From: Psammoneis japonica
Lineage: Eukaryota
DNA length: 64,000 nt
Assembly: GCA_008632985.1 (NCBI GenBank)
Contig: QPGO01000019.1
Span: forward strand, 124,001-188,000
Direction of reading: 5' to 3'
The notes beneath the pieces are model-generated. The model saw nothing but the letters and a program-made list of their open reading frames with translations, did not search any database and was not told the DNA's origin. Below are positions 1-51,984 of the stretch, piece after piece; position 1 is the stretch's first letter, and each line of letters begins with the position of its first letter. A program made the position numbers and the translations under genes.

Positions 1-855
1 GTCATGCTGCACGTGCCTGCTGTGAAAAGCATGTGAGAAGAACAAGAAAAGGACAAGAAGGTCAGCCAGACTCTGTTGTGCAAAAAAGTGGCTGTGCACA
101 CAGTTGTGAAGATTTGAAACTCCAAAAATGTGGGCAAAGGCATGAGGACAAGTTGAAGGATGTCACTCATGAAAGAAAAAGAAATGATGATTCAACAATC
201 GGTGAGTCAGAAGAAGAACCTTGGTTGAGGACCATTGCTGGGGTGGCACACATGTGCGAGAGCACTGCGCATGTTCTTCCAGAGGCAGAGGAGCTTCTTT
301 TTTGTTGGCATTGTCCATTGTTCACACACACACAACAACAACTTCAGTGGCCCCTTCTCTGCACACCTCACAGTGTATTTCTTTGCTCTTTGCAATGGAT
401 TCAGGCCATTGTTGAGCCGCAAGAGTCAATTCTTCAACCGGACGAGATGTTGCAAAGGCACCACCACCGCTTGTTTGCGGACCAGCACACTTTCGCCTCC
501 GAACGGACAAGAGACAGACACACCTTGGTCTTCGTTGGTACCGCGTACCGTATCCGCCATGGCGGGCATGCATGGCAGCTAATAATCTTTATCTTTAATT
601 ACACAATAAATTTCTTCTTTCAAAAGAAAAACGCTTTATCATTTCAAGTTTTTGAGACACTAGAGAGAGCCAGGTCTTGTGTCACGAAAGAGGGTCGGCC
701 TCTTCCAATCGTATCGTGGTTGGCGTTCAAACAGAGTAGAGAATTCAAAACACATGGATCAAGAATAGTCCTGTGACGCGTTATAGCATTGACCCTCGTC
801 ACGGAGGTCGGTCGTTCTTCAAGCTACTTTCTCAGTTCTCTCAATCTCTTGTTCA

Positions 856-1848
856 TCATTGAGAAAGCATTGCTTTTCGTATCTTTTGTTTCAATAAAGG
901 TTTACCAATCATCTGCAAAACCTTTTCTGGCAACTTTGACTTTGTTTGATCCCAAATATCCTTGGCGATATCCGACGTGGACATTTGAGTGGGCATGTCA
1001 AACATGTTGATTTGATAGTCGGGTTTCAATGCCAACATTTTCTCACGATGAAAGGACGCAACTTGTTTGTAGTATTCTCGAAAGTCGTCCTTGTCTTTCG
1101 CCTTCTGACGATTGTATTTTGTAAAAAGAGTGGAACATTTCTCTTGCGGATCACCCTGTTGCATTCGCTCGAGCCAATAGTCATAATCCAAGGCATGCCG
1201 CGCATTATCCTTCAACAGCGTGACGGCTCCGTGATTCTTCATGCGGCTCTCTACCCACTCATCAATGCCTCGGTCTGTAAAGACAAGAATTGGCTTGCCA
1301 CCACGCTGCCTTTTGATCACGTCTAACATAAAGGGCACCATGTAGGGATAGGGCGTATCATTGACGGCCATAATGCCACTCGTGACAACCTGTTCTACGT
1401 GACGTCTTAGACTTGTTAGTATTTCAATTCCCTCCGCAAAGGTACAATTGTCACTTGTGAAGCAATGCTGACAAGCACCATGATCTTGCATGACTAGAGC
1501 TTGTGCCTTTGCTCCCTCTAGTATTTCTTCATTCAATTGTTTCCCTCTTAGGGGGTAGACGCAACCGCCTTGAAAGTGCACCGACGGTATCCCAAGCTGA
1601 CAAAACGCACTGTGCAACGTCTTTGTTCCGGTAGTGCCTTGTCCAGTTCCGATATAAAAGGGAACATATGGCAAGGAATTATCATTGCTTGTTGTACCAC
1701 GGTGATGGTTTACCTCTTTTTGAGTAGACGCATCAATGCTGTTCTTGTTCTCGTTGTAGGCGGCCTTGTTATTTGCGAGAAAAATCCCGGCGAGCAAACA
1801 ACACAACCCAGTCTTTATTAGCTTGTTCTTTATCTGTTTCAATGGCAT
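856..1848 (-). CDS. Sulfotransferase-like / P-loop fold protein with N-terminal membrane anchor
   Basis: Within ORF 856..2031. Probable start is MPLKQIKNKLIKTGLCCLLAGIFLANN (ATG at 1848), a hydrophobic anchor. Motif YIGTGQGTTGTKTLHSAFCQLGIPSVH and the later D-T-P and R...W..S motifs resemble sulfotransferase-family PAPS-binding loops. Normal TA and Tyr content. Confidence 0.65.
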   Translation of the reverse strand: MPLKQIKNKLIKTGLCCLLAGIFLANNKAAYNENKNSIDASTQKEVNHHRGTTSNDNSLPYVPFYIGTGQGTTGTKTLHSAFCQLGIPSVHFQGGCVYPLRGKQLNEEILEGAKAQALVMQDHGACQHCFTSDNCTFAEGIEILTSLRRHVEQVVTSGIMAVNDTPYPYMVPFMLDVIKRQRGGKPILVFTDRGIDEWVESRMKNHGAVTLLKDNARHALDYDYWLERMQQGDPQEKCSTLFTKYNRQKAKDKDDFREYYKQVASFHREKMLALKPDYQINMFDMPTQMSTSDIAKDIWDQTKSKLPEKVLQMIGKPLLKQKIRKAMLSQ

Positions 1849-2267
1849 TTTTGAGAAAGAACTGTATCCTTTAGGAGGAGATGGGGTGTATGTATTTTCA
1901 ATTTCGCTGCAGGATGAGGGATTGGAACACCGGTAAGGTTTACCACATCGCACATCGCACAACATCCAGAATACGGTAATGAAGTGAGGTAGGTCAGCAG
2001 TCATTGTGTGGACCAAAAAAGAGGCATTCAACGCATGCTACTTAGTCGTAATGTCCGTTCAACGGACAATATGGCGATTTTGTGACCGTGCGAGTACAGT
2101 ATGTACATACATACGAGATCGTGTAGAAAATTACGACACGGCGCGCCAAAAAAAACTGCGGCCTGTGCGTGGTGCGTTGCGGGGCTTTGGTGCGTGTTCT
2201 GCCGTCTGCAGTTGCCCTGTGTTGGAAACTAGAGTACAGTACACGGTATGGTACAACAACAGAAGCA

Positions 2268-2432
2268 ATGAGTGCATCATCAGAACAAGACAACGTAAAC
2301 TCTCGCACCATGGAAGACAAGTCAGTAGCATCCTTGAAGGTGTCAAAAGATGATTCCAAGACGAGCGGGGAGAAAACGACAGCCGAGAAGAAAGAACAGT
2401 CAGTGGTAGAGCAACCTCCTTCTGTTGCTATT

Positions 2433-2465
<33 letters not shown>

Positions 2466-3129
2466 AAAAAGCACCGGCTCAAGAGAAGAAGCATACTGCT
2501 ACCGCTGGTATTACACTTAGAGACGATGGTACTACTGTATTAGACCTGGCGGCTGCATGGTACAAGCCTGGTGATCGTTTTGAGGTGCAGTGGGAAATTG
2601 TCAATAGCGAAGATCCGTCCAAGAATGTCACAAGGTGGTGGGGTGCCACGCTGTTGCCTTATGACGGTCGTGTCGTGTCGGGAGAAGGCGATTCACGAGT
2701 TCTTGCCGTTCGCACTCTTGAGTACGATGCATACCCAGAGGGTGGCTTTCCGGAATCATCAAAGGAAGACGTTGTGGTTCTGGCCGACACGATGCTGCAA
2801 CTAGAAACCGAACAGGAGTTGCCATATCGTAGAGAAGCAAGCGGCGACTTTGAGAACACGACTCTTTGTGGACAAGAAGAAGTGCGCACTGTTTTAGACT
2901 CGGTCGTGTCAAGTACACTCGCCAAGTCGGGAGCGGAGTTTGGGCACTGGATGCGGCGCAACAAGCGTATGTTGCCGACCGTGTCGTCAAGGACAAGGAA
3001 AAACTGTTGGAGGCATTCTCCAAGCACATTGACGAATCTGAAGGTAGGGTCGTCTTTACGGCCGATCTTGTGCAACAGATCATGGCTGAGACCTTTGGTC
3101 AAGCCGCGAAAAAGAGGAGAATGGCATGA
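2268..3129 (+). CDS. Hypothetical protein, apparently one gene split by two single-base homopolymer frameshifts (~2470 and ~2943)
   Basis: MSASSEQ...AAAAAAAAK joins APAQEKK...PGDRFEVQWEI...WWGATLLPYDGR...YDAYPEGGFPE if one A is added in aaaaa. It then joins ALDAAQQAYVADRVVKDKEKLL...KKRRMA* if one G is added in ggg. Confidence 0.6.
2437..2465 (+). repeat. (GCT)n microsatellite encoding poly-Ala
   Basis: ctgctgctgctgctgctgctgctgctgct read directly. Confidence 0.85.
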
Positions 3130-3861
3130 GCATTCTTTGTCAAAGTATGTATGTTATGGAGTTGATTGTTGTATGGACGAAGAATCATTGCGTCGCAGCA
3201 GAAAAGTATCCGTGATTTCTTTAGTGTTTCTGTCGGCTCTTTCTCCTGCTCATTTGCCCGACTAGCTCGACGACTGACTCACCGGCCAGACAAGATGCGA
3301 GTGTGTGTGAGAAATGCGTGTTGATGCCATCAGATCCGACAATGAACTCGGCGTAGAGAAGTATGTAAACGAACGGTCGAGCGTACCGGTACTACCGTAA
3401 CTGTGGGGCCAACATTATGCTGAAAAACAAGAACGCAACGTTACTAATTCTTCTTTTTGCCCGCCGCTCCCTCTTGGATTGGGTGCGCTGTGACAGATAG
3501 AACAGAGATGAAAAGGAAAACGGGCATTTCCCTCAATCTACAGAATTCGTCTGATCTACAGGATACAACAGTACAAACTCATACTTATACTCAAACATTA
3601 CCTACGCGACTACGAGTAAGCCAGTACTAGATAGTACGAAAGGTACGCAGTATGATACGATGTCAGGGGCAATATGAAGGGCAATAAAAAATTGTTATCA
3701 AGGTGCGAATGAGGGTTTTGTTCAAGACTTGAGAGGCGAATTTCAAATATTGTGCGGGGTTTGTTCATTCACTTTTTTTCCTTTCTTGGACTCGATCTGA
3801 GTCGCAATACTCCTCATAAAGCCAATCGAACATTGACTGACTAGGACGTTCATTCGCAACG

Positions 3862-6606
3862 ATGTTTGCCAGTAGAGCAGTTCTTCTCCTGCTCGCTGCA
3901 GCTTTTGCTCCGCAGAGGAGCGAAGCCCAACAGGTACGGACGGATGAATCGAGTGTACTTTGTTTTGGAGTGCTTTGTTCTTGCTTCCTTTTTGATTTCT
4001 AACCGGATTTCTCCAAATAAATCCGTTGTACAAAGGCAGTAGATGACTACGCTCTGGAAGAACTTCTTTTTCTCGGCGATCTCCAGCGGGAACTTGGTAC
4101 CAACATGGGCATCCCGGGAATCGTGGAAAATGCCGTGTGCATGAATGATGCTGCTATGGAACCTGGGCTTACATGTACCTCCCAAGCTGTCGATCTAGCA
4201 TCGGCTATCCCACCCACAAATGTTACGGGATGCAACATGGAAGGAGATGATGTCAGTTTCATCTTGCAATTCCAGCTAGACATAAATGCAGGTCAACGCT
4301 TCGACGTTGGCATTTGGTTTTCAGAAACGGGTACGAGCGCCCAAACAGGAGTCTGCACCGTGGTGAATCTTCCATGGGGGCAGGCACCGACTTACGTTGA
4401 CCTGGACATGACGAACAACCCTTTTCCAGGAGGCGGCGGAAGTGCCCCTCCATCCAACATACAAGATACGTGCGGAGACCTTGACAAAAGTGCTCAGACG
4501 TTCCCTGTCTCGCTGACCATCCCCCTGACGGTAAAATGCGTGGATCTAGTTGGTAATGATCGAATGTTAGACGTACCGTACTGCACCAGCTGGAGGACAT
4601 CAGGAACGACTAAGAATACCCTATGCACATCCCCTCTTGAGACTTTTCCTCTTGAAAAAAGCATGTGCAGATGCGAAATGTTAACGCTCCCCATCATGGT
4701 ACCAGGCACGCCGAGTCCCACGCCATCTCCTACCCCGAGTCCGACGCCGTCCCCTACACCAGCGCCAACGCCGTCTCCAACCCCTGCTCCTACTCCGAGT
4801 CCGACGCCGTCTCCAACTCCTGCTCCGACCCCGAGTCCGACGCCGTCTCCAACCCCTGCTCCTACGCCTAGTCCGACGCCATCTCCAACTCCAGCTCCTA
4901 CCCCGAGTCCGACGCCGTCCCCTACGCCTAGTCCGACGCCATCTCCAACTCCAGCTCCTACTCCGAGTCCGACGCCGTCCCCTACACCAGCGCCAACGCC
5001 GTCTCCAACCCCGGCTCCTACTCCGAGTCCAACGCCGTCCCCTACACCAGCGCCAACGCCATCTCCCACCCCTGCTCCTACTCCGAGTCCGACACCGTCC
5101 CCTACACCAGCGCCAACGCCATCTCCAACCCCTGCTCCTACTCCGAGTCCGACGCCGTCTCCAACTCCTGCTCCTACCCCGAGTCCGACGCCGTCCCCTA
5201 CACCAGCGCCAACGCCGTCACCCACTGTGCGGAAGGGTGCTTGCTGCCCACTAGCTGGATCCAACAGGGTTTGCTTCAAGGGAACTGAAGAAGAATGTCT
5301 TTCAAATTATGGACTCTGGCAAGGAAACGGCGTGACGTGCGAGGACGTAGATTGTCCGACATCACCTCCTACAAGCTCTCCTACCGAAAGCCCTACCATG
5401 GCTCCAACTACCCCGGCTCCGACAGCAGCTCCAACGACCCCTGCTCCTACCAGAGCTCCTACACTGCCACCGACGAAAGTTGATCAGAGTCCAGGAGCAT
5501 GCTGCACCTTGTTTGATGGATGCAAGTTTCTTTCTCAGGAAACGTGCGCTTTGGGTGGTGGTACATTTACAAAACCAAACCAAAAGTGCAAGGACACTGA
5601 ATGCCCCAACAAGGGAGCTTGCTGCTTGGAGGATGGATGCAGTAAAACTTTCAAGAAGGAGTGTACCAACCAAGGAGGCGAGTTCAAGGGATTTGGCGTG
5701 CCGTGTGAACCTGGTTTGTGCCCGACCAAACCGCCAACGCCAGCTCCAACCACGGCTAGGCCTACCATGCAACCCACCATCACTCCTCCCCCGACTGGAG
5801 CATGCTGCGATGTCGAGAAGGATGAATGTGAGCAGACCACGGAAGAAGATTGTGACACGGGCGTATTCTTAGGACTTGGAGTCAAGTGTAAGCCGGGCAT
5901 TTGTCCCACAAGGACTTCTCCCGGAGCGTGTTGCCTCAAATCTGGAGAATGCCGTTTCTGGTCTCAACGGACGTGCGCTACAAACGGAAACTTCTTCTTG
6001 GGTCCTGGTACTTCCTGTAAGAATGTGGTGTGCCCAGTCAAGACTCCAAGCCCTACCCCTACTCCTGCCAAGAAACCGCTTGGTGCCTGCTGCTTTGACA
6101 GTGGTCGTTGCCTCAACCTCATTCCTGCCGTGTGCAGGAAGAAGTACGGCAAGTTCATCGCCATTGGTACCATGTGCAAGGATGATAACACCTGTCCCAT
6201 TGGGCGCAGCGGCAAGCCCGGTGCGTGTTGTCTTGTTAAGAAAAGGCAGTGCAGGACTCTTCCTGAGAAGAAATGCAAAAAGAAGGGTGGGCATTTTGGT
6301 GGTGAAGGTGCCAAGTGTAGCAAGAAAACGTGCCCTGCCGCCTATGGTGCCTGTTGCTTGCCAAATGGAAATTGTGCCGTGTTGAAGAAGACTGCTTGTG
6401 TCAAGAAGAAGCATGGAAAGTTTGTCGGATTCGGTACCAAGTGTAAGAAGAAAACCTGCGCCTCCAAACCCGGTGCCTGTTGCTGGAAGAATGGCAAGTG
6501 CATGGTGCTCAAACAGTCCAAGTGCTACACGCGCGGAGGAAAATTCGTGGGAGCCGGTGTCAAGTGCGGCAAGAACACGTGCCCCAAGAGTCCTGATTAC
6601 AAGTAG
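3862..6606 (+). CDS. Secreted Cys-rich protein: signal peptide, N-terminal Cys domain, PTPS/PTPA mucin-like tract, about 9 GACC-x-C repeats becoming Lys-rich (copy 1, intact). Exons 3862-3933 and 4036-6606
   Basis: Exon 1 encodes [24 protein letters not shown]. Intron gtacgg...ctaac...aag spans 3934-4035. Exon 2 [27 protein letters not shown] is in frame with the 833-aa ORF. Repeats follow GACC...C...C...GG.F.G.G..C...CP. Confidence 0.85.
4708..5226 (+). repeat. Coding 12-bp-unit tandem repeat (TPSP/TPAP)
   Basis: Repeated ccgagtccgacg / ccgtctccaacc / ccagcgccaacg units translating to PTPSPTPA. Confidence 0.9.
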
Positions 6607-6959
6607 CTTGCACCCCGATTACCGGTGGTGAAAAACTTGGCTGAAGTGTCAAGTTCAGGGGTGGAGAAGAACTTGAAGAGAAATCTCGGGTTGATTTTGT
6701 TGAGCTTGTTTGTCAGTGTGCATATTTTGCCGAATCCGTCGACTGTAGTGCATGATAAAAGAAATAAGTTGTTTGATTCGTCATCGATTGCACTTTTACC
6801 GTGAACCCCGGGTGAGTGAGCGAACACCGTTCTTACTGTAAACGTTGTTTGCGCTAGTCGGAATGCCACTCATGCAGATTGTTCACTGGTTCCAGACCAT
6901 TTTCACAAGTTCAGTGAACTGCCGGAACTTATGGACATCATTGTCTCTGATGGCACCAT

Positions 6960-7660
6960 CGAGACCATCAGGCAATGACTGTCTGGAGGCACAGGACTTG
7001 GCAGATCTGATGCTGACACAGCATTGAAATGGCTTCTCTGTCATGGAAAGGTCAGCGGATTGCTCAGAGAAGCACTGTGCATGTTTGTGAGTTGGTTGGC
7101 AAATGAGTCACCCCCATGGGCTGCCTGCTGTGCACTCATGGTGAAGCGACTCATCATGCCAGACAAAAATCTGGGCATCCTTCCAGTCAGCACAGCAGGG
7201 GAGGTTTGGCATTGAGCCGTGGCCAAAGCCATTCTCCTGGTTGCTGGAGCAAAGACCAAGGAAGCTTGGGGTGCCAGTCAGCCATGCCCCAGACTGGAAG
7301 CAGGCATCGAGGGTGCCATCCATGCATGAGCATGCTCTGGGAGTGACACAAATTCAAAGATGACTGTGGGTTTCTTTTTGTTGATGCCTCCAACAGGTTC
7401 AATGAAGATGGACACCTTTGGCCATCCAGTGCCTTGTTCAACAGTCACAAGTGCTGGAGCATCCTGATCATCCATGGAAACTTTAGAGCAGCCCTCATTT
7501 TGTTCACAGAGGTGTTCATGCAGGGCAGCCCACTTGGTGTGGCAGTGCATGGGCTGGGACTTTTTCCACTGGTCTGTTGCTTGAGTGAGCACTTTAAAGA
7601 CACACCCACCCCTCAGCGCACCAATGACTCAGCAGTGGCTGAAAAATTCAACACCTCATG
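6960..7660 (+). mobile_element. Degenerate CRE/SLACS-like non-LTR retrotransposon reverse transcriptase fragment
   Basis: Across frames: LANESPPWAACCALMVKRLIMPDK.LGILPV..GEVW, LEAGIEGAIHA, and MQGSPLGVAVHGLGLFPL (a QGDPL-like RT motif). Many stops and frameshifts, TA-depleted. Confidence 0.6.
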
Positions 7661-26895: not shown

Positions 26896-27224
26896 CAGAC
26901 ATCAAAAATAAAAGGGACATTTCCCCGCAAACGACATGTGAACAAAAGGTCTAACTTGTCTGTCCTGCTGCAGGACGCAACAGCCAGTTCAGCAATGAAA
27001 CATGTAAAAAGAAAAGATCAGTGCGGTGTTGCGGGCAATGAAGGGCAACAAGGTGCATGGGAGTGACATTTGTTTCTCCTTTTTAAACGTGTTTTGCTGT
27101 GCAGCACTCTTGGCAAACATTCGTCAGCTTCTTGATTTTTGGCGTTTAGCGTTGCAATTGTTGCAGTGCACGAGACTTTCATTGACCACTCAGTGGTTGG
27201 TGATTGCAGACTTTTTCGTGTCGG

Positions 27225-27278
27225 TCCGGCAGTCGGGGGGTCGGGCAGTCGGGCAGTCGGGGGGTCGGGCAGTCGGGT
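27225..27278 (+). repeat. GGCAGTCG/GGGGGTCG 8-bp tandem repeat
   Basis: ggcagtcggggggtcgggcagtcgggcagtcggggggtcgggcagtcggg read directly. Confidence 0.8.
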
Positions 27279-27959
27279 TGTCCGTCTGAATTTGAAAGTG
27301 TGTCCCTCGGATTTTGGAACGGGATGGGTTGTTTGGTGCAGATGAATTCTTCGGATTCATGGAATGATCATTGAAGACATGAGAGGTCGTGGGGACATCC
27401 TAAAAAATTGATAAATTCCCTGCGACGGGTGCGTGGCACGGTTTTTCAGGAGAGCTCGAAAGTCATCAAAAATTGGGATTGCCAGCGTGGCATGTTGAAA
27501 AATGCACTCAGATGCAAACAAAGACAATTTGTCGTGAATTCTACACGAAACAGTCACATTTGGGAAAACATGTCGAACAACAAGTGAGTTTGTGCGATGC
27601 GCTGTTATGGCGATAAATTGGAAAAAAAAAAGAGTGTCCGTGCACCTCGCTGCAGCCCCAAAAATGGCATGAGACATCAAATGTGACGGTCATCCGCGTC
27701 ACCGGTGCGGTGGCCACACCACTCAGCCGCCACAATGCCGGCCCCGGCGGTGGGGCCCTGCGCACGTGCAGGCAATGCAGCATGCAACGGCACACACCCA
27801 CACCCACAAAGAAAGACAAGTGGTCAATGCTCCCCGCAGGCCTGGTCTTTCGGCGAATTGCGGCATTTGAGTCCCACTTTGTTTGGAGAGATCTCTCAAT
27901 CTCGGCAAGTCTCATAAAGCCAATCGAACATTGACTGACTGGGATGTTCATTCGCAACA

Positions 27960-30485
27960 ATGTTTGCCAGCAGAGCAGTTCTTCTCCTGCTCGCTGCAGC
28001 TTTTGCTCCGCAGAGGAGCGAAGCCCAACAGGTGCAGACGGATGAATCGAGCTCACTTTGTTTTGGAGTGCTTTGTTCTTGCTTCCTTTTTGATTTCTAA
28101 CTGGATTTTTCCAAATGAATCCATTGCACAAAGGCAGCAGATGACTGCGCTCTGGAAGAACTTCTTTTTCTTGGCAATCTCCAGCGGGAACTTGGCACCG
28201 ACATGGGCATCCCGGGAATCGTGGAAAATGCCGTGTGCATGAATGATGCTGCCATGGAACCTGGGCTTGCATGCACCTCCCAAGCTGTCGATCTAGCATC
28301 GGCTCTCCCACCCACAAATGTTGCGGGCTGCATCATGGAAGGAGATGATGTCAGTTTCCTTTTGCACTTCCAGCTCAACACAAATTCAGGTCAACGCTTC
28401 GACGTTGGCATTTGGTTTTCAGAAATGGGTGCAAGCGCCCAAACAGGCGAATGCACTGTGGTGAATCTTCCATGGGGGCAGGCACCAACTTACATTGGCT
28501 TGGATGTGACGAGCAACCCTTTTCCAGGAGGCAGCGGAAGTGCCCCTCCATTCAACATACAAGATGCGTGCGGAGACCTTGACAAAAGTGCTCAGACATT
28601 CCCTGTCTTGCTGACCATCCCCTTGACGGTGAAATGCGTCGATCTAGTTGGCAATGATCGAATGTTAGATGCACCGCACTGCACCAGCTGGAGGACTTCA
28701 GGAATGACTGAGAATGCCCCATGCACATCTCCTCTTGAAACTTTTCCTCTTGAAAAAAGCATGTGCAAATGCAACGTGTTAATGCTCCCCATCATGGTGC
28801 CAGGCACGCCGAGTCCCACGCCATCCCCTGCCCCGAGTCCGACGCCATCTCCAACTCCAGCTCCTGCCCTGAGTCCAACGCCATCTCCAACCCCTGCTCC
28901 TGCGCCCAGTCCGACGCCATCTCCAACTCCAGCTCCTGCTCCGAGTCCGATGCCGTCCCCCACACCAGCGCCAATGCCGTCTCCAACCCCTGCTCCTGCT
29001 CCAAGCCCGATGCCGTCTCCAACGCCTGCTCCTGCTCCGAGTCCGACGCCGTCCCCTGCACCAGCGCCAACACCGTCACCCACTGTGCGGAAGGGTGCTT
29101 GCTGCCCTCTAGCTGGATCCAACAGGGTTTGCTTCAAGGGAGCTGAAGAAGAATGTCTTTCAAATTACGGACTCTGGCAAGGGAACAGCGTGACGTGCAA
29201 GGACGTAGATTGTCCGACATCACCTCCTGCAAGCTCTCCTGCCGAAAGCCCCACCATGGCTCCAACTGACCCGGCTCCGACAGCAGCTCCAACGACCCCT
29301 GCTCCTGCCAGAGCTCCCACACTGCCACCGATGAAAGTTGATCAGAGTCCAGGAGCATGCTGCACCTTGTTTGATGGATGCAAGTTTCTTTCTCAGGAAA
29401 CGTGCGCTTTGGGTGGTGGTGCATTTACAAAACCAAACCAAAAGTGCAAGGACACTGAATGCCCCAACAAGGGAGCTTGCTGCTTGGAGGATGGATGCAG
29501 CAAAACTTTCAAGAAGGAGTGCACCAACCAAGGAGGCAAGTTCAAGGGATTTGGCATGCCGTGTGAACCTGGTTTGTGCCCGACCAAACCACCAACTCCG
29601 GCTCCTGGCACCGCAGCACCTACGCAGAAACCCACCGTTGCTCCTCCTCCGACTGGAGCATGCTGTGATGTTGAGGATGATAAATGTGAGCAAACCACAG
29701 AAGAAGATTGTGACACGGGAGCATTCTTGGGGCTTGGAGTCAAGTGCAAGCCGGGTGTTTGTCCCACAAGGACTTCTCCAGGAGCCTGCTGCCTCAAATC
29801 TGGAGAATGCCGTTTCTGGTCTCAACGGACATGCGCTGCAAATGGAAACTTCTTCTTGGGTCCTGGTGCTTCCTGCAAGAATGTGGTGTGCCCAGGCAAG
29901 ACTCCAAGCCCTGCCCCTGCTCCGGTCAAGAAACCGATTGGAGCCTGCTGTTTTGAAAGTGGTCTTTGCCGCAACCTCATGCCTGCCGTGTGCAGGAAGA
30001 AGCATGGCAAGTTCATCGGTGAAGGTGCCATGTGTGCGAAGGACAACCGCTGTCCGGTTGGACAATGCGGCAAGCCCGGTGCGTGTTGTCTTGTGAAGAA
30101 AAGGCAGTGCAGGACTCTCCCTGAGAAGAAGTGCAAAAAGAAGGGTGGACATTTTGGTGGTGAAGGTGCCAAGTGTAGCATGAAAACGTGCCCTGCCGCA
30201 CATGGTGCCTGTTGCTTGCCAAATGGAAATTGTGCTGTGTTGAAGAAGACTGCTTGCGTCAAGAAGAAGCAGGGAAAGTTTGTCGGATTTGGCACCAAGT
30301 GTAAGAAGAAAACCTGCGCCTCCAAACCCGGTGCCTGTTGCTGGAAGAATGGCAAGTGCATGATGTTCAAACAGTCCAAGTGCCACACGCGTGGAGGAAA
30401 ATTCGTGGGAGCCGGTGTCAAGTGCGGCAAGAACACATGCCCCAAGAGCCCTGATCACAAATGGTTTGTGTTGAGTGTGAGATGA
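27960..30485 (+). pseudogene. Copy 2 of the secreted GACC-repeat gene. ORF open but TpA/CpG-hypermutated. Exons 27960-28031 and 28134-30485
   Basis: Collinear with 3862-6606, including upstream sequence and intron. Numerous TA->TG/CA and CG->TG/CA changes. Intron donor gtacgg->gtgcag. Stop TAG->TGG with read-through WFVLSVR. Expression is unknown. Confidence 0.8.
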
Positions 30486-32230
30486 TGTACACATCTTTTG
30501 TCATTTGCTTGCAATGCAATGAGCAACTCATTTTATCTTCATCCATTCAACCAATTGTGCCTTTGTTCTTGCATTGAGAAACATTCTGTTGCTTGCAGTC
30601 CTCAACATCAGATGGTGGGGGCAGTGGATGCAGAGGGAAAATGTCAGAGACGTGCGACACCGCTGATGAAACCAAGCCCGGTTCATGCAGAGCATGTCTT
30701 TTAACGCAGCGGTCTAGTTGCTGCACACATTTGACTTTGACAAAAAGCCTCCCATCCTGCTGCCAGGTTTTTGAGCTGTCTCCAAACTGTCTGTTCAATT
30801 GCTGCAAGAACAAAGACTGTCAAAAATGTGGCAAATCAAGACATGAAAGCAAGGAGCTTCTTGCTTGCTTGTCCCAGTTTCACTGCCAATGACAAGTCTG
30901 ACTTCAGCCACACGAGAGTGGCAAATCCAGCATTGAGCAACCATTGCTCCAAAAACAAAGTGCTCAGGTGTCACAATGTTCCAAACAAGAACATCTCAAC
31001 TGAGGACTGGAACGCTGAAACAACGGCCACAATGGAACGAGGTGCCAACTCTTTGCTGAAGGCAGTGGTGCCATGCTCTTCAGGAAAAGAGACTCTGTTC
31101 TTTTCAAGAAATTTTGCAGCAATTGATGCTCTGTTGCCCAACCCAAATGACCCAGATTCAGACTTGCAAGAAGAAGAGGTGCTGCTTCACAACAAGGGCA
31201 CTTGTTCTTTTCTGACTGACGTGGCTCTCAAGAGTCATTTTGCAACTCCAGCACAACTCCAATCAATGGACATCCATGGTCAGGGCATTGTCGGCAATTA
31301 AATCAAGATTGCACTCACAGAACTTGGCTGTGCAAAACAATGCTGTTGATTGTGCCTTGCAAAAGTTTTGCATGAAATCTCTTGCATCATTGCAGGCCAC
31401 AGGCACCAGGCACCAGGCACCAAACTGGGCGACAAGGGAAAAAATGCTCGCCATTTCCAAAGTGCCCTTTTTCTTGACTGTCAAAGTGTTTGACACACAC
31501 TTTGGTCTTCAACACAAAGTTGTTTGCCTGAACAACACTGTGGTGGATTTGTCCCAAATGTCATTGATGATGCTTGGCTTTGCGTCAGGAAGCTGAGTGG
31601 GACCCAAAAGCTCTGTGACATGTGACTTGTGCCACAACTCATGATGTCCAATTGTCCACCCTCAATGAAGTTCACACAACAACCAATGGATGTGCAGGAC
31701 ATCAAGCACCAGTGCTCTCTTGTTGTGAAACCTTTTAAATCTCTTGCACAAGAGCTCCCACTGTGGGAGACAGCACAGTGCCGTCAATGGCATCCAGCAA
31801 TGCACCGCCATTGGAGCTGTCAAGTGCGCCTGTTTGGACGCTGTCAGATGCCCCTTTGGAAGCCCCAGGTGTGGAGGACAGCACAGCAGCATGCTGTCAG
31901 AAACTCCAATTCATCCACCAATTTCATGGCTCCATCTGCATTGCCCCTCTGTTGTGACAATCCTTGATGCGCTGCTCAGTTGTTGTGGCCCACAACTCAG
32001 AATCTTCTGCAGAAAACCCTGAAAGTCAAACCAACAAAAATCATGAGTGATCCATTTTTTGCTTTTTGGAAGTTTTGCAGAGGAGTCTGCACCCACAGCA
32101 ACATGCCAGCAATTGCAGCCTCGCTGACAATGAACAAATTGCAATGACAAGAAAAACAAAGCACGCTTTTTGATGGTGCTTTCTCCGACATTCAATCTTG
32201 GTGTTGGCACATTGGCCAGTGCTTCAACAC

Positions 32231-39321: not shown

Positions 39322-39860
39322 AACACTGGCGCGTGGTTTTCAGAAACAGGTTCGAGCACCCAAACAGGAGAGTCTGCACTGTGGTGGACCATTGGCACCA
39401 TGCACAAGAATGACAATGCATGTCCAATTGAGCTTTGCAGCATGCCCAGCGAATCATGCTGCTCAGTTGAAAAAAGGCGGTGCAGAGCTCTTGAGGAGAA
39501 GAAGCGCATCAAGAAGGGCGGGCATTTTGCTGGCAAAGGTGTCAAGCACAGCAAGAAATTGTGCCCGGCCACCTGTGGTGCACACTGCTTGCCCAAAAGA
39601 TCATGTGCCATGTTGAAGAAAAACACTCATGCAAAGAAGAAGCACACGGAATTTTTTTTTTTAATTTGGCAAAAGAGCAAGTGCAAGAAGAAGTCTTGCA
39701 CCTCCCTGGGCCTGGGTGCCTGTTGCTGTTCCGGAAGAATGGCAACAAGCATGCACAATGTTGAAAGGCTGCAAGTGCTGCAAACACAGAGGAGCATTTG
39801 TTGGAGCTGGCATCAAGTGCCACAAAAAGCCTGCCCCAAGATCTCTGATCCCAAGCAGCC
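39322..39860 (+). pseudogene. Copy 3 (fragmentary) of the GACC-repeat gene, split by the Copia insertion
   Basis: Joining 32214-32230 to 39327 gives GQCFNTGAWFSETG (copy 1: [14 protein letters not shown]). It then jumps to IGTMHKNDNACPI...KKGGHFAGKG...CPATCGAHCLP...GACC...GAGIKC.KKPAP. Confidence 0.75.
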
Positions 39861-40743
39861 ACACCCCAATTGAGAGGTGCAGAGAAGACCTTTTGAAGAA
39901 AATTCTCAGGTTGGCTTTGTTGAGATTGTTTGTCATGTGCGCACAATTTTGCCAAGTCAGTCAACAACAGCGCATGGCAAAAAATTGAGCTGCATGATTG
40001 GCTCTTCACAAGCTGCACTTTTTGCCATGAAGATTGGAAAATGGGGTGAGTGAGTGCATGCCATTTGTGTGTTGTTGTGCTCACAGCAACAAAAGAAACA
40101 AAAGCAATTGCTGCACTCATTTCAAAGGCAGGGCGTTCAAAACTCACAATGCTGCTCTGGCCATTGCTCATTTTTCCAGCTTTCCTTTCTTGTTTGTCAA
40201 CCCTCTTGTGATGACCACATTGTGCCAGCTTCAGTTTGCATCTGTGAGAAAAGTGCCCAGGGGATCCTTGGCTTGTGACACGGTGCTGTAACAACAGACC
40301 CCATTGCATTGACTCATGTGTAGCTGGACTGCAGATCGAAAGAATTTAGTTCAAAAGATGTGACAGTCATGGTCATAGGACAACATGAAAATTTCTCTCC
40401 TGTAACGAAAAGTTTAACGCTTTTCTCTTTGCTTCTTCTACTATTTTTCCTTATGTATATTTCGAGTAATCTGTCTCTCTGACATGGTGAATGCCAGTAT
40501 CGCCCATCATTCACATTCGACTATTTATATGTGAATGAAAATTTGGGTGGATAACACAGTCTTTGTTTTAGATGTCCGGTATTCAATTTTATATTCAGAT
40601 CGCAAGATGTATCAAGGTCTTTTTTCGGCCCCACAAGTCATTCAAAATGCCATTTTCTTGTCGGAACAGGTTACGCAACTTACGCACACGCACAACAAAT
40701 ACCGATAAAACACTTCTTTCTCCGCACTTACGCAGTGTTCACA

Positions 40744-42430
40744 ATGGGTTTCTTAGCAACAACGACCCTCGCTGCTTGCCTTTGCGCAACACCAGTTTTT
40801 GCTACACCTGCTTATCCAGAAGGATGGGCTTCCCCTCAACCAGATGGATTTTCAACGGGGCAAATGGAGCTTCTCGTGGGTAAGTGCGCTGCAATCACAG
40901 AACCATATGCTATACACTTTTTGCGGGTTCTAACACTGACAACCACCACCACATCCGTTTCAACAAAAAGGAACGCCCGAATATCATTTTAGCGTGGCAC
41001 AGGTTCCGGATGGGTTCTTCACAACAATTCGATCTCTTGATGGCTGGGTTACCTATGCTGACCTTGATGACACAGGTGCTCTCACTCCTACGGAATTTGT
41101 TGTCGGTCGAGACGATCCTCCAGTGACCAGTTTAATGCTGGTTGAGGAAGAATCCGTTCGCAACAAAAAATGTTTAGAGAGTGATTATTGTTCTTGGAAG
41201 CTCAATCATGCTACACCGCAGCCAAGACACGTAACTGGAACGGTGAAGAATCTTGTCATCCCGATTCAGTTTAGTAATCATGATGACCGTTTGTTGATTT
41301 CCGAAAAGGATCTAGAAGACGACTTGTTTAACGATGTCGACTTGTCAGTTCAAGATTACTTTTCTGTGCAATCTCAAGACCAGTTCAAGCTTGTTTCGGT
41401 CGTGGCACCGTGGGTCAAGATATCCATGACAGAGGCTGAGTGTGCCAATGGCAAGAGCGGCCTTTCCAACAAGATTCACGAGTGTCTAGAGGAAGCCATG
41501 GACTTGGTGGGTGAACACGTTGATTTTGATGACTTTGATGAGGACGGTGATGGTATGATTGATGCTCTTACGTTTGTTCACAGTGGCTACGGCGCCGAGT
41601 ACGGAGGAGACGATGAGGACTATTCCTACTACACGGACCGAATCTGGAGCCATTCTTGGGAGCTACCGCAAAAGTCCAACGTGCCGTATGCCCTCTTCTC
41701 TGCCTTTCATGGCACTTATAATGGACACATTTCTCGGGTCGGTGTGCCCGTCCATGAGATTGGTGCCATGTTGGGCGCTCCCACGACCTATGGTGACTTT
41801 CCTGGTTTTGGTCTCGGATCGTACGATTCCATGGCCTATCCTTTTGGCTTTGATGGAACAGAATACCACCCGGGAAACATGAGTCCTTACACCAAGATTC
41901 ACATGGGATGGGGGGACGTTATCGAGATTGATGAACCAGGCACCTTTACGGCTGTTGTCGAAAGCGGCACTATTTTCAAAATCACAAAGGGATTCCCGTC
42001 TGGTGAATACTTGTTGATTGAAAACCGCCAATCTGAAGGCTACGACGACGGGATTCGACAAGGAGGAATCGCCATTTATCACGTGGATGAGGCTGCTGGA
42101 TCACAAGCCGGCCATCCCGAGCAACCCGACTACCCTTACAATGGCAAGCACTACCGCGTCGCCTTGCTGCAGGCCGATGGGCGCTTTGACTTGGAACGAT
42201 ATGAAGACGCTGGTGACTCAACGGATCTCTTTCATGGAACAGAGATAAGTGGAGTTGGACCCAATGGACCCATTGTTTCACCAGAAGCCTTAGCGGAACA
42301 TTCCGACGAGTATCCCAACACTATGGCCTATCAAGGTGGACAAATTGAGAATGGTCAATTGACCATTTTCAACATCTCCCCGTCCGATCAAGAAATGACG
42401 TTTGAAGTTACTTGGGATACAGGGAATTGA
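40744..42430 (+). CDS. Secreted M6 (immune inhibitor A-like) metalloprotease homologue with degenerate zinc motif. Exons 40744-40879 and 40971-42430
   Basis: Signal peptide MGFLATTTLAACLCATPVFA. Intron gtaagt...ctaac...aag at 40880-40970. Motifs NLVIPIQFSNH, SVQDYF..QS, FDEDGDGMIDA..FVHSGYGAE, IWSHSW, HEIGAMLGAP, EYLLIENRQ and GIAIYHVDE. Confidence 0.88.
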
Positions 42431-45400
42431 GGACAGTCTTCAACTGTTTTCATTATTTGTTACATTGTATTAATTGCATTTTAAGGTAGAAATCTGGGCC
42501 AATATTTATTAGCTAGTGAAATGTTTTGGCGGGAGTGGCGGAGCAACCGACTTTTCGCGGGCACGCATGCGCACGCGAGATCGACGATTCCATCGACCAT
42601 CGATTGTGAGGTGCAACAGACCAACCATGCAGAAGCATGTTGTCAAAACAATTTGATCAAGGAGCGAAAAATTCTGTTTTCAAATGTGCAGTGGAAATCT
42701 GATTTTGCTTGCAGAGTCCTTGTGTGATGGGTTTGGAAAATCAAAGCACTGCAGACCATGTAAAATGCACTGGTCGTGCCAAACACTTCTTGATGCAAGA
42801 TTGTCAGGAAACAGCTGGAAGAGCATGGCACAAGCCAGGGGCCACAACACTGATTGCATTGGAGAAAGGGTTTGATTTAAATGTACAAATTGATGATGCT
42901 GTCCACGGACAAACAATCGTGCAGGGTTTCTCAATTTTGCCTGAGTTGCCAACATGCGGCAAGCTCAGGTTTGGCAACTCGGCTCTGTGATGAGCTGCAA
43001 CAAGACAATGTCTCTCCATGATAAAACTGCTTTCTAGGGACAACTCCATTTGCAAGCATTGTCATTTTTCCTGTTTCCCAATCAAAAGAAGAGTGTCTGG
43101 CAGAATGCTGTCAAAAGGACTGCAAAATGTGAGGTGGCAAGTCAAAGGAGTTTCCTTGCAAGTCTCAAAAGACTGCTGTGACACCACTCAGTCTGTCCTG
43201 GACCATGGTGCACTCTTGTTGTTAAACAACAACAGACAAAGCAAAGTCACATTCAATTGAATGAGCTTGGTTTTTTCTCTTCAGAAGTTGACTTCATTGT
43301 TGAGATCCAGGAGAAGCTCTCTGCCGGCAAAGCCAGCTGGTTGGAGCTCGAATGTCTGGGCATGTGCACACTTCTTTTGCACTGTCTCACCCAGCACCAG
43401 CTGCTCCAATGCTTCATTGGAATCCTGAGTGATGAGATCATGCAGAACAATGATGGCACCAAGCACAAAAACAAGAGTCATTGTCATTGTGGAATTTGCA
43501 AATGCCAAAAAACGCAAACGCTCTTGTCCAAAAACTTTGCTGCTCAGTTGCTGCCAACAAGCACCACGTGGCTCTGTCGCCAAGGGTGGAGTCATGTGTT
43601 GCAGAATGTTTTTTTGTTGAGATGATGAGATTTTTTTTGCTCACATCAAAGGGGCTTGCTTTTGAAAGCTGTCAAATGCGCAGCATCCTCTGGACTCAGT
43701 TTTGTGTCTTGTGGTGCTCTCAACTTGTTGAGGCAGGTAAAACAGAGGAAAAAGTGCAAAAGCACCCTGTTCAAGGGGGGGGGAGCATTGTTTGTTTGCT
43801 GCCAATCATTTTTTTTCTTTGACGCACTTCACGTGGCTTTCAAATGTGTGAAATCAACTCGTCCTCATGGCACAAACTGAGCAGTCAGCAACAGCAGTCC
43901 TCCTCATGCTCACAGTGGAGCACTGCTGCAAGTGGAGTAAAGTGAAAAAAGTGTGTCACAAGTGTGTCAAGTGTGTCAGTGCACCATGCCCTCATGTGGG
44001 CTCTGCACACAAACTGCACCCGGGTGACACACACTCGTTCACTCATGGGTGACACACTCAAAAACACAAGGGTGAGCCCGTCGCACAAAAACAAAAACAA
44101 AAACGTTTTTTGTTTTTGTGACACACACGACGGCCTCATTGTTGAACAAAAACAAAAACACCCCTTGCATGCATTTCTGCACCAAACCACGCATGTGCGG
44201 AGCCACGCGCTGACAACACTGGCTCCAGACGACCGCAACAAACAAAAGGGGCAAGACACACAATGGCGTGTTTGAATCCATTTTGTGCCGGCAATTTTCA
44301 ATCAATCATGACACAAGTCAATGCAGTCAATGCTGTTGATTGAATGTCATCTGTGGCATAAAAGACAAGGTGAAACATGGTGGCTCATGTGCAGAATGCC
44401 AGTGCAACAGATCGGTGTTGTCAAAAAAGTGCTGCTCTTGTGTCATGTCATCACAAGTGCGAATCACAAGGCGACCAGAGTGATGGCCAAGGCAAAATTA
44501 GGACCTTGTGTGGCTGACAAAAATGTGGCGGATTGATTGGTCACGTTCTTTCCTCCCCTCCACACATCTCATGTGCAGAACACAGCTGATCGTTTCATCA
44601 AGCTTGTGTTGTGTGGTCACAAATGCAAGCCACAAGGCATCCATGGTAAAGGCCAAGGCCACAGTGGAACCGTGTGTGACCAATGTTGAGATGGAGAGTT
44701 TAATGGAAAAGCTTGTTCCTCCCAATTCCACCAGAAGGGGCCGCATTGCGTCGATGTGTCGATGCATCAGTCATGGTCGTCGCTGGCAGTGGATTTGCAC
44801 ATGGCAAGACACGCAGCTGCGTTTTTGTGTGAGCTTTTTTATTTCCACAAAAACGTGGTGTTGTTTTTGTTCACGAGTGCTCGTGAACAAAAACGAAAGT
44901 CTCAGTCGAGCGAGTCAATGTGCAGTTGAATGGGTCAAATGTGTTTTTGTTTTTGTGTGACGACAAGGGAGGGGCTGACACACTTGCAGTGCTGACACAC
45001 TTGTTTGCCAATTTGAATTGCCCCTGACACACTTATTTGCCAATTTCCACAGCCCCCTTGCCAGCACAAAAACAGGTGGAATGCACAAAAATCATGACCA
45101 AATTGATGGCGGAAAAGGGAAAAGTGTGTTGCACAGTGCGATGTCATGCACCAACATCCACGCAACCAGAATTGGATTTGAGTTTTATGTTTAATCCCGC
45201 AGATGTCCCCAGCACTGACCACGTGGATTTCTGCACTGTGCATTGAATCCACACCTTTTCGTACGTGCAGTGTGACGCCGAACCACAAAACATCGAAATG
45301 GCAAATCGACGCCGACCAACAGGTGCTTCATTTCTTCCGCAACCAACTCTTTCTCTCCCCTTGTTTCTGCTCTTCACCAAAACTTGCCAAAAACTCTGGC

Positions 45401-46087: not shown

Positions 46088-47921
46088 AACAGCACAAAAC
46101 GTCTGCCCTCCACCCCAATGGTGGCTCCCGCCTGTTTCATGAGGCTCGATTCTTGTGCTTTTGAACTTCATTCAGCACCACATCTGTGCACTCACCACCA
46201 GTCCAAAACACACGAGTGCATCTCCTTCAACTGGAAAGTTGATTGACAGAAGAGTCAAGAAACATCTCTTTCAGAACTTTTGCTCTGTTGACTGCAGGAA
46301 CACCAGCACAATGTGAAGTGTGACGAATCGGGAAACTTGGGTCAAGTCGTCTGCACGGCCAGATTGAAGTCAAAAGGAGGTCCGCAAGAAAATAAAACAA
46401 AGAAAGAGCTGAGAGAGTTGTGACAAAACTTTGAAAAGATGCCTGCTCGATTCCAAGCCAAAGGTGACTTGATGCAAAAAATCAATGCTGCTCATGGCAT
46501 GGAGTGAGCTGAGCAACAAAACCCCGGCCAATCGCACTCGCGCGACACTTTGCAACTCCAACAAGAATGAAGCCCTCCCAACAGCATCTGAACAGTTCCC
46601 GTGGGAGTGATGTTTCTGTCACAAATCTTCTCTGAATCAAACACTGCCAGCACAACCACATGCATGTCCTTTTCCCACCTGCAAATGCTCCTTGAAACCA
46701 ACTGATCCACCACAAATGACGTTGTTGCAACCTGCAAAGATGTTCTCCAAGAGATTGATGTTGTTTGAGCTCCTGATGATGCCATGTTTTCCGGGTTGTC
46801 AAATGGATCAGGGTGTCCATGATGTTGTTGGATGCAGAGAGGTCTTCAAGGAATTTCTTGGAAGGCCACCCAGTTTGCCAGAGAACTCACACACCGTGTT
46901 GACAAATGATCCATGAACACCACTGCTTGCATCATCAACACATTCCATGAAGTGAAGCATGAAGCCCTTTTGTGGGGAAGAATCTGCGTGCAGACTGAGA
47001 AACAAACAGATGAGTGCCGGGCGCTGTCATCTGTTGGAAACACAGCAACCCCACAAGCCGCGACATCCAGAGCTTGCCTCAATCACCGCAAAGAAGTCCC
47101 ACACATCATCACCTCTCATCTGTGTTAATTGTCAAATGAATGATTCACAGGTCAAGGGATGAGAGGAAGGAAACAACAACAAACTCGACGAAACATGCCG
47201 GAATGATGACAACAGCAGCAGACTCACACACCGAAGGAATCGAAATCGATGTTCTTGCGCGGAGCAGCACTTGTCAAAATTGAGTCAACATGCAATGGTG
47301 CCACAGACAAATGTCAACAACATCCTGAGTGACTCACCTTGTGAAAAACGGTGACAACGACGGTGGACGCGACACAAATTCGCCATGGTGGCTGCACAAA
47401 TTCTGTGCAGAATTTTTCGTTTTTGTGCCAGGATCCAAAAAAATCGCACGTTGCAATTTTTTTAAGCTGTGCCAGCCAGCCTGGCACAGCGACATGTTGC
47501 GATCCGTGGGAGGTCTTCTCCTTCTCTCTTTCGCACCACTTGCAGACCTCCCAGTTGGGAGCGGCTAGAGCAGAGAGGAGAGGGAGCACAAACAACAAAT
47601 GAGCACGGCAACGCACGAGGAAGGAAAATCTCAGTCACGAGCGTTGAAATTCCATCTTGAGAAACGCAAGAAAAAACTCTCGGAGTTCGTTCGGATTTCC
47701 GTTGAGATCGCGTTCGCGTTCGCGAGCTTTTGAAAAATTCATGGCGCTCAACCTTTTTTTCCAACCGCGACTGACCAATGACCAACGACCACCGTCGACA
47801 ACGACAACCAACCAACAGCAACTTGTGGGTTCTTGTTGTTTGCCATTTGACCCATTGTCCATGCAATCAACGGCTGCAGTTGTTGTGCGTCGTGCTGCAG
47901 TCGCCGCAACATCTTTTTCGC

Positions 47922-50900: not shown

Positions 50901-51984
50901 CGGAGTTTGTCAGTATTCAACGACCGCGTTTGCCTTATACGGTATCCTACTCGTAGCAATTTTCGGAGATCAAAAGTCTGCTCAGGAGATCGGAAAAGTC
51001 GCTTTGATTCTCTCGGATAAGCTTGAAGCGCGGGAAACGCGTTCAGCGACAGTTGCGTATGTCAACGCATGTTTGAGCCACTGGATCGCACCTCTTCATG
51101 ACAGTCGGGACCAGTTTCTCAGCGGCTACAACGTGGGATTGCACACCGGTGACATTGAAAACGCGATGCTCTGTGCAATGAATTATTGCCATGCATGCTT
51201 TGAAACGGGGAAGCAACTCACGGAAGTCGAAGCGGATCTCCGAGCTTTTACCAAACAAATGGAGGAATACAACCAGGCTCTAATTCTGAACGTGACTCGT
51301 GTTTTCTTGCAAGCTGTGCTGAATCTTCTTGGCCAGTCAGAAGATCCTACTGTGCTAACCGGCGAAGCAATGAACCAAGACGAATTGTTGGACCATTGCG
51401 CCACTACAAGAAATGTTCAAAACAGAGACGGAACAAGAGCCATTCACATTGAATTAGTTTTTATGTTCGGAGACTACGAGCAGGCGGCAAAGATCGCTCT
51501 TGAGTTAAGAAAGCTTGGGACTACTAACCCAGCCACCTATCTCCTTCGGAGGTTTGCTTTGTTTGGAGGTCTAGCATATTTTGCCATGACGCGTAGTAAC
51601 AGGTTCAGACCAAAGTGGAGGAGACGAGCTTTACGCACCATGAAGAAGGTGAAAAAGTGGGTTCGCAAAGGAAATGCAAACTGCGTTCACATCTATCAGC
51701 TGCTCGAGGCAGAGTCGTTTGCACTAGCAGGCAAAATCGAGAAAGCCAAGAAGGGCTACGATCTGGCAATTGCTTCCGCCGCTCGCAACGGTAGTCTCCG
51801 AGATAGAGCATTGGCCAATGAACGTGCTGGGGAGATGTTTCTTGAGACAGATGAATTTTTGGCCGCAGACTATTTACAGTCGGCTCATCAGCTTTACCTC
51901 GATTGGGAAGCTCATGAAAAGGCCGCGCACCTCAGCCGCAAACACCCTTTGTTAGTTTGCAAGGATCAGGGGCAAACGCACTGA
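47922..51984 (+). pseudogene. AAA_16/STAND-like ATPase plus helical-repeat protein (resembling the ATPase module of bacterial multi-domain sensor kinases), interrupted by a TRIM and one frameshift
   Basis: LFGRDEE. Removing the insertion gives NVVFLSGYTG|VGKT (Walker A, intron 48780-48874). Further motifs SGKFD, PY, LFLDDLQWAD..SL, GCYRSNEV, KTLGNVFF, ASCLG, YRFVHDQIQAAAY and ALANERAG. Probable intron 49115-49198. Frameshift at ~50720. Confidence 0.8.
48144..48750 (-). mobile_element. TRIM (terminal-repeat retrotransposon in miniature), 607 bp, young
   Basis: 152-bp LTRs at 48144-48295 and 48599-48750 (TGTGGG...CTCACA). 5-bp TSD ACGTT at 48139-43 and 48751-55. Minus-strand PBS-like TGGTTGCAA next to the right LTR and GGGGAG PPT next to the left LTR. 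About 300 bp non-coding core. Confidence 0.92.

Follow-up and report, generated by a model that had tools for sequence, protein, structure and literature searches.

Why should one of two closely similar genes be overwritten by a single kind of mutation while the other stays intact? The question is raised by 64,000 nt of the diatom Psammoneis japonica (contig QPGO01000019.1 of assembly GCA_008632985.1, positions 124,001-188,000, forward strand; hereafter the window), which carries an intact two-exon gene, here called copy 1, and a paralog, copy 2, that has lost most of its TpA steps (written TA below, as CG stands for CpG). We consider it probable that a TpA-specific DNA adenine mutator acts throughout bounded, probably silent chromatin domains, so that the position of a sequence, and not its repetition, sets its fate.

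Depletion of TA is the prevailing state of the window. Depleted DNA makes up 51,181 nt (~80%), with 215 TA steps observed and 3358 expected (observed/expected ratio, o/e, 0.064), and is also poor in CG (965 observed, 3035 expected). Three islands totaling 12,649 nt, all of which harbour genes, retain 497 TA steps against 849 expected (o/e 0.585) and 673 CG against 734; the segments were defined from the same TA data that give these ratios. GC content is about equal in the two states. An earlier reading made from the sequence alone had placed collapses of TA content at ~520, ~6870, ~40300, ~42520, ~48150 and ~52310, and these are confirmed by six change points, at 538, 6930, 40288, 42514, 48192 and 52298. 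All six are step-like, with support intervals 43-180 bp wide, close to the resolution limit given by the spacing of TA steps; the interval for 6930 is 6839-7019, with the last dense TA at 6855. A two-state hidden Markov model returned the identical six borders, with a wider interval (48124-48557) for the one at 48.2 kb. Among the TA steps that survive in depleted DNA window-wide, those in TTAA, CTAA and CTAG are kept best; TTAA stands at 0.72 of its island density, and ATAT, ATAC and ATAG are almost gone.

The kind of change can be read from the two gene copies, which match over 3813-6610 and 27911-30468 and were aligned in 2450 columns after exclusion of a 339-bp tandem repeat whose alignment is ambiguous. 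There are 204 substitutions between them. Fifty-five replace TA in copy 1 by TG or CA in copy 2 and one goes in reverse, which upholds the earlier claim that one duplicate alone is hit. Copy 2 has lost 54 of the 73 aligned TA steps of copy 1 (28 to TG, 26 to CA) and kept 15, and its own 16 TA steps include just one at which copy 1 has TG. Among 124 CG steps, 40 have become TG or CA in copy 2, against seven changes in the opposite direction, and the remaining 101 differences (4.1% of the columns) are unrelated to TA or CG. With the strands collapsed, A>G is found at 55 of 146 adenines after T and 28 of 1011 after other bases, and C>T rises above background at CpG only (40/248, compared with 28/1045 elsewhere). 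The hits in copy 2 fall on 39 of 67 TAC, 10 of 42 TAG, 4 of 24 TAA and 2 of 13 TAT trinucleotides, the loss is uniform along the gene (14/19, 11/16, 12/16, 10/12 and 7/10), and it is blind to coding effect, having taken 17 of the 56 opportunities that were synonymous and 34 of the 78 that were nonsynonymous (p=0.15).

The direction, from TA to TG or CA, is given by the altered stop codon and tyrosines of copy 2 (Table 1) and by other family members, which read TA. Since both strands are equally hit and the intron is kept, the change was made at the DNA level; the same two facts rule out RNA editing of a retrocopy, which we had considered. Copy 2, which has flanks of its own, is no fresh duplicate but an older paralog, because homology to copy 1 runs from ~50 bp upstream of the start codon through the stop codon with none beyond, and because the background divergence, counted outside TA and CG, is pS 0.099 and pN 0.030 (proportions of synonymous and nonsynonymous differences, from crude counts). 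The highly similar 2.6-kb duplicate reported 24 kb away is thus real as a match, but it is an older paralog, and its distance (24,098 bp in the 5' part, 23,858 bp downstream of a shorter Pro/Thr repeat) depends on a scaffold join, a 170-N gap with copy 1 on one side and copies 2 and 3 on the other. The background differences are under purifying selection and the TA and CG changes are blind to coding effect, so copy 2 was once a working paralog that was later overwritten. The two copies were ~96% alike before the hit. Copy 3, a decayed fragment, keeps none of 16 copy-1 TA steps and none of 25 CG steps, at 67% identity with a less certain alignment. Differences between copies 1 and 2 also cluster near 5740-5790 and 6160-6210, and these clusters look like exchange with other paralogs.

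To weigh repetition against position, contigs of a sequencing run, X1, which is possibly the window's own source sample, were compared with 29100-49099 at 85% likeness. Unique DNA has a depth of ~60 in this run, and the body of copy 2 sums to 600-650, from which we put the family at about ten similar copies. One 4681-bp contig of depth 59.8 (39295-43973), with five other letters and two gaps, spans both borders of the island around an M6 metalloprotease gene, and the depth bins of 39772-43773 stand at 60-65: nothing else at 85% likeness matched there. Within this single-copy-depth DNA, TA is 0 against 37 expected in 39772-40288 and 7 against 93 in 42515-43773, and depth is single-copy on both sides of the 40.29- and 42.51-kb borders. 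The flanks of copy 2, which are not homologous to copy 1, have lost TA as strongly as the gene body; the contigs of the downstream flank have depths of 66 (30407-31105) and 60.6 (31083-32315), and the latter differs from the window at 6 of 1233 letters. In the multicopy family, on the other hand, 78-100% of the depth reads TA at 10 sites where copy 1 has TA, among the best-supported 40 of 1319 difference rows.

The most telling border runs through a gene and a mobile element together. A young insert resembling a terminal-repeat retrotransposon in miniature (TRIM), whose strand and class are inferred from terminal motifs, interrupts the coding sequence of a STAND/AAA ATPase gene just upstream of the Walker A motif. 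Named relatives of this gene include diatoms, and 47919-48140 is homologous to ATPase N-termini (best E 3.5e-7). The unique 5' part of the gene, on a contig of depth 61.2 (47567-48174), is hit; the multicopy insert (summed depth 742 at 48356) keeps its TA save for one step at the domain edge. Its two long terminal repeats (LTRs) differ at that one site, TG at 48152 in the left and TA at 48607 in the right, and retain TA at 48193, 48220 and 48286 in both. Because the left LTR carries a change absent from its twin, the domain edge lies inside that repeat and is later than the insertion. A unique gene part hit and a neighbouring repeat spared is the reverse of what pairing predicts. Beyond the insert, the remainder of the gene keeps TA, although selection on a disrupted gene should be weak. 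The proposal that position and not duplication guides the targeting therefore draws support from single-copy-depth DNA that is hit, multicopy DNA that is spared and a border within an LTR and a gene, and little from the ~6870 border taken by itself. A variant copy of the TRIM-like element with small indels is present in run X1 and in a second run, X2. A tRNA-like barrier within the element was considered and is unsupported: there is no tRNA gene and no Rfam match, and the B-box-like match at 48560-48570 was equaled in 15 of 100 shuffles. Further along, at 50716/50719, the gene shows a frame change relative to its homologs at a run of A, which is either a real lesion or a sequencing error.

The 5' part of the STAND/AAA gene has lost TA and kept CG. 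Decay of CpG and loss of TA are therefore not simply coupled, and this counts against CpG methylation alone setting the target. A fixed ratio of TA loss to CG loss was also rejected: the ratio of 3.5 in copy 2 predicts ~18 CG in 47600-48144, where 41 are seen (P 1e-6, or P 0.01 at the most lenient bound on TA). Two other fringes free of TA with CG intact, 418-538 (P 0.035) and 42515-42610 (P 0.089), are weak and point in the same direction. It would seem that the mutator extends beyond the reach of CpG decay or outpaces it.

Table 1. Principal features of the window, with observed and expected (exp) dinucleotide counts where available.
Feature	Positions	Strand	Details
Copy 1, intact two-exon gene, not hit	3862..6606	+	intron 3934-4035 (GT..AG); open frame, 880 aa
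Copy 2, hypermutated paralog	27913..30464	+	intron kept; stop TAG -> TGG; 6/8 Tyr -> His or Cys
Copy 2 upstream flank, non-homologous to copy 1	26900..27912		TA 10 vs 63 exp; CG 55 vs 63
Copy 2 downstream flank, non-homologous to copy 1	30465..31767		TA 4 vs 47 exp (30465-31105); 2 vs 49 (31101-31767)
Copy 3, decayed paralog fragment and part of 3' flank	39327..40060	+	67% identity; alignment less certain
Unique 5' part of STAND/AAA ATPase gene	47567..48144	+	TA 1 vs 34.9 exp; CG 41 vs 37.3
Young TRIM-like insert	48145..48750	-	direct repeats of 151 bp (48145-48295, 48600-48750); target duplication of 5 bp
STAND/AAA remainder and 3' flank, not hit	48751..52298	+	TA 124 vs 223 exp in 48873-51984 (o/e 0.56); AAA_16
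Reverse-transcriptase open reading frame fragment, starts mid-protein	6826..7652	+	tblastn match from 6826/6835; first ~30 bp keep TA, rest hit
Spared island 1	539..6855		TA o/e 0.63; contains minus-strand sulfotransferase-like gene (PF17784 match), second open reading frame and copy 1
Spared island 2	40289..42514		surrounds M6 metalloprotease gene; homologs carry PF05547

The mechanism that we would propose is a mutator working on DNA, which would turn A into G in TpA on either strand within bounded stretches of the chromosome. Everything inside such a stretch would be hit, repeated or unique, transposon or host gene, and everything outside would be spared, whatever the number of similar copies; copy 2 would be a working paralog that came inside such a stretch, with copy 1 left outside. 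The stretches may be silent chromatin, seeded at transposons and spreading as far as an active gene with its promoter. The agent would be a deaminase working on adenine in DNA, with an error-prone polymerase or a modified base as possible alternatives. Loss of CpG in the same stretches is probably a separate and slower process, the decay of methylated C.

Several points weigh against this reading. Contig depth is a rough guide and not a copy number, as the tool itself warns, and copies less than 85% alike, or partners since lost, would escape the depth test. The family readout of TA comes from rows picked by support. The depth bins of 47567-48144 mix neighbouring repeats, so that the uniqueness of that stretch is drawn from one 608-bp contig, and the border within the LTR is placed by a single substitution. 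It is possible that an undisrupted STAND allele exists, or that the frame change in this gene is a sequencing error. The single-copy hits all lie within a few kilobases of repeats, as spreading triggered by homology would also give. The ~6870 border either is an insertion junction or sits roughly 30-100 bp within the insert. Copy 1 itself may have been touched: five CA-versus-TG double differences at third codon positions may include hits to copy 1, with 3.5 expected from background, and at 30252 copies 1 and 2 both have TG where 69% of the family depth has TA, which could be one hit that copy 1 shares. Neutral TA steps would be preserved by whole-haplotype selection just as by protection. Finally, the link to chromatin or methylation is one that we draw from sequence.

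The alternative that comes through best agrees with the reading just given on domain-wide execution and differs from it in the trigger. Here homology starts the process and chromatin carries it: paired repeats would seed heterochromatin, and the mutator would hit both the repeats and adjoining single-copy DNA, with active genes resisting. There is precedent in Neurospora, where, according to the accessible parts of the sources, mutations made through the DIM-2/DIM-5/HP1 pathway extend to the single-copy linker that separates the repeats (10.1101/344036, PMC12543289). That branch combines a pairing trigger with heterochromatin, so the opposition of domain-based to pairing-based targeting, as the sequence-only reading had framed it, fails as an either/or choice. 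In the window, every unique stretch that is hit adjoins repeats, and depleted DNA at 31.8-39.8 kb and 43.8-47.5 kb is mostly multicopy by depth. Repeats lying wholly within one domain are both TA-poor, as in the 32234/39156 pair, which has five CA-versus-TG double differences in 166 bp. However, the 304-bp spacer of the TRIM-like insert, which lies between 99%-identical repeats (only 151 bp long, and young), keeps 6 TA steps of 18 expected, where hit DNA has nearly none. The tandem repeat of copy 1 also keeps TA (18 against 14 expected), and TA is the prevailing reading of some ten paralogs at the sites listed. Outside this organism, in the alga B. natans, the largest target of TpA hypermutation described in the accessible part of a preprint is a 186-kb region that is single copy (10.64898/2026.01.13.699255). 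We regard a homology trigger as unlikely.

A second alternative has the targeting directed at elements, for instance through small RNAs aimed at transposons or foreign sequence, or has the elements arriving already mutated, with the sharp borders being insertion junctions. The ~6870 border suits it. The reverse-transcriptase fragment there, which we take to be a 5'-truncated non-LTR element, begins mid-protein at the border, and homology to the flank of copy 3 fades where it begins. Both Pfam and word-based searches missed the fragment at 6862, and an Atlas search gave a weak lead only; a HMMER search found 767 relatives at E<=0.001, with RVT_1 in five of the ten tested, two of them above the curated cut-off. 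The fragment is itself hit, having 15 His, 4 Cys and no Tyr opposite 33 tyrosines of its homologs. A border at an element junction cannot alone separate domain from element targeting, and the earlier argument from sharp borders stands as regards six real steps and is weakened at the ~6870 one, which coincides with the start of this fragment. The B. natans authors do propose foreign-sequence targeting, possibly RNA-guided, in the available part of their text (10.64898/2026.01.13.699255). Against such targeting, host-type genes are hit here (copy 2 with its intron and own flanks, and the STAND 5' part), the two borders of the M6 island lie in DNA of single-copy depth, a multicopy element is spared, and the change in one LTR shows that mutation came after insertion. 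Together these make it very unlikely that elements as such are the target.

A third alternative is pairing of the kind known from fungal repeat-induced point mutation (RIP), whereby both copies would be hit and damaged copy-1 lineages lost, or copy 1 restored from the homologous chromosome, so that selection on haplotypes makes the islands. That all three islands contain genes is in keeping with it. Copy 1 has 85 TA steps in 3815-6606, of which 67 could be changed synonymously and 7 are noncoding. At synonymous codon junctions, T|A makes up 53 of 142 (36 of 121 without the tandem repeat), a level within or near that of other intact genes (0.28-0.41 in other island genes and 0.31-0.38 in the four closest external M6 loci), compared with 5 of 102 in copy 2. 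The prediction that synonymous and intronic TA steps of copy 1 would be found intact is thus borne out, and with neutral TA at baseline, site-by-site selection is excluded. The contribution of selection allowed for in the sequence-only reading falls in that form; in the whole-haplotype form, coupled with mutation in bursts, it would be expected to pass the same test. Haplotype selection does not explain well why the insert-broken STAND gene keeps TA in its 3.1-kb remainder and has lost it in its 5' part, and any one copy should be under weaker selection where about ten family members exist. The hits in single-copy-depth DNA, and a chemistry that differs from RIP, also stand against it, and we find this combination hard to credit. 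An artefact of assembly or base composition, to which the 16-C run followed by 170 N at 8042-8227 (gap 8058-8227, a scaffold join) might be thought to point, is the least credible explanation by far, as separately assembled contigs reproduce hit and spared DNA over two borders with 5 other letters in 4681 (though the run may be of the same source), the changes of Tyr to His or Cys and of stop to Trp set a direction, and GC is about equal in both states.

The islands reach somewhat beyond the genes that they contain, extending past the stop codon by 249 bp for copy 1, 318 bp for the sulfotransferase-like gene and 314 bp for the STAND gene; around the M6 coding sequence, the spared DNA measures ~450 bp upstream and 84 bp downstream. 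The M6 protease has its best named relatives in diatoms, with labels beginning Syned, Gra and Striat, which we take to be araphid pennate genera. Run X2 has a contig that matches 40970-42484 letter for letter; it begins at the intron acceptor, and the bin depth is accounted for exactly by the remaining 172 letters of the contig (10.2 predicted and seen). We infer a spliced M6 transcript in X2, which is not recorded as an RNA run. A single expressed island would accord with transcription being what protects. For copy 1 no RNA run was listed and X2 contained a fraction of just 0.06 of its sequence words, and the X2 contigs listed left the STAND remainder uncovered in 48751-49099; neither result bears on expression. 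A metagenome scan with an M6 alignment gave 53 loci, in which TA o/e fell below 0.2 in 4 of 738 overlapping 1-kb windows, all four in one locus of 71% GC and high CG, a pattern that differs from the depleted DNA here; these loci are short or of unclear, probably mostly bacterial, origin, and are no test of taxonomic range.

The product of copy 1 is Pro/Thr- and Cys-rich and probably secreted. It has no Pfam family in a search of the window's frames, and an Atlas search returned no named family for its N-terminal domain. The family proteins (4021-6606 in copy 1) combine Pro/Thr repeats with repeated Gly-Ala-Cys-Cys modules, and we would guess that they are possibly adhesion or matrix proteins. 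Of the 154 frames listed at >=120 aa, 118 stop-free ones were compared with Pfam and gave five matches (sulfotransferase, RVT_2, GAG-pre-integrase, AAA_16 and a weak DUF6213), leaving most of 8-27 kb and 52-64 kb without annotation. The RVT_2 and GAG-pre-integrase matches, both below cut-off, belong to a decayed copia-type element at 32234-39321, which lies between two 166-bp repeats 89% alike and abuts the remains of copy 3. A high-copy short element occupies 45108-46441, with a summed contig depth of 20,000-33,000 compared with 60 for unique DNA, and has an inverted relative at 58954-59239. The block at 58230-64000 has a TA o/e of 0.15 with CG only partly low (0.61), and contains long overlapping open frames without a clear Pfam match; it may be a more recently targeted element or gene.

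The choice of targets by a TpA mutator is left open in the accessible part of the one published report, the B. natans preprint, and the window supplies natural controls that tell repetition and position apart: twin genes of which one is mutated and one intact, hits in unique DNA, a multicopy element left alone, and a border that cuts through one LTR and one gene. If position rules, this would be a genome defence with a logic unlike that of RIP, able to destroy host genes when they fall silent or have transposons as neighbours, and the borders would tell exactly where to seek a chromatin mark. A natural A-to-G editor of DNA with regional targeting would also be of interest to the base-editing field. 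A wider picture, which we offer tentatively and would sooner doubt than assert, is of a chromatin-guided diatom DNA adenine editor whose domains creep from transposon blocks into unique host genes, erase TpA both earlier and faster than CpG decays, and have borders that young insertions or active transcription units pin down to within ~100 bp. Such an editor would impose a heritable, irreversible position effect, pruning gene families without homology sensing, and would be shared with a distant rhizarian alga.

Among known systems, RIP by the RID pathway is alike in being a context-specific transition hypermutation of repeat-rich DNA that acts on both strands and wrecks transposons and gene duplicates. 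In the accessible portions of the literature, RIP changes C:G to T:A and mutates both copies of duplications more than 80% alike (PMC4592977, PMC1805685), and >80% identity over >400 bp suffices on linked repeats (PMC1805685). Copies 1 and 2, given their likeness before the hit, were above that requirement. Here, however, the change is chiefly A:T to G:C at TpA, the hit copy is the one inside the domain, and neither damage to both linked copies nor confinement to the repeat is seen. The DIM-2/DIM-5 branch of RIP is closer in that single-copy DNA is mutated by a chromatin route, and unlike in its C-to-T chemistry and its trigger, closely linked repeats; here the spacer of near-identical, if short and young, repeats keeps part of its TA. 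In the diatom Phaeodactylum tricornutum, transposon-rich DNA has DNMT5a-dependent CG methylation, H3K9me2/3 and H3K27me3 (PMC9998398, as far as its accessible text goes). Methylation of this kind would account for CpG decay and provide a domain mark, but decay of methyl-C cannot convert TA to TG or CA, and TA is lost without CG in the 5' part of the STAND gene.

The nearest parallel is Bigelowiella natans, in which integrated viral DNA undergoes TpA hypermutation (Mettrop et al., bioRxiv 10.64898/2026.01.13.699255); what follows is taken from the accessible part of that preprint. There, mutation-accumulation lines acquired the signature in a region that is silent and single copy, the rate was raised ~1000-fold and the process was active in some clonal lines only, and an ADAT2-like deaminase was proposed as candidate agent. 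The two cases share the conversion of TpA to TpG or CpA on both strands, confinement to regions, the reach into single-copy DNA and transposon-related sequences among those poor in TpA; in the Psammoneis window these appear as A>G and T>C at TpA on both strands, regional confinement (in one window) and four hit stretches at single-copy depth. As to foreign or mobile targets, retroelement remains are hit here, but host-type genes are hit too and one mobile element is spared. The words 'CpG' and 'diatom' do not occur in the preprint's main text as available, and we found no diatom report of TpA hypermutation in the literature searched, where most subscription papers fell outside coverage. The TpA signature itself is not new, being present in this 2026 preprint. 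B. natans is a rhizarian alga with viral inserts, partial depletion (Rho 0.45) and measured rates, whereas here 80% of the window is depleted to an o/e of 0.064, the targets include paralogs of a host gene and a portion of one host gene, the borders are mapped to <200 bp and CpG loss runs alongside; what the present locus adds is its set of targeting controls.

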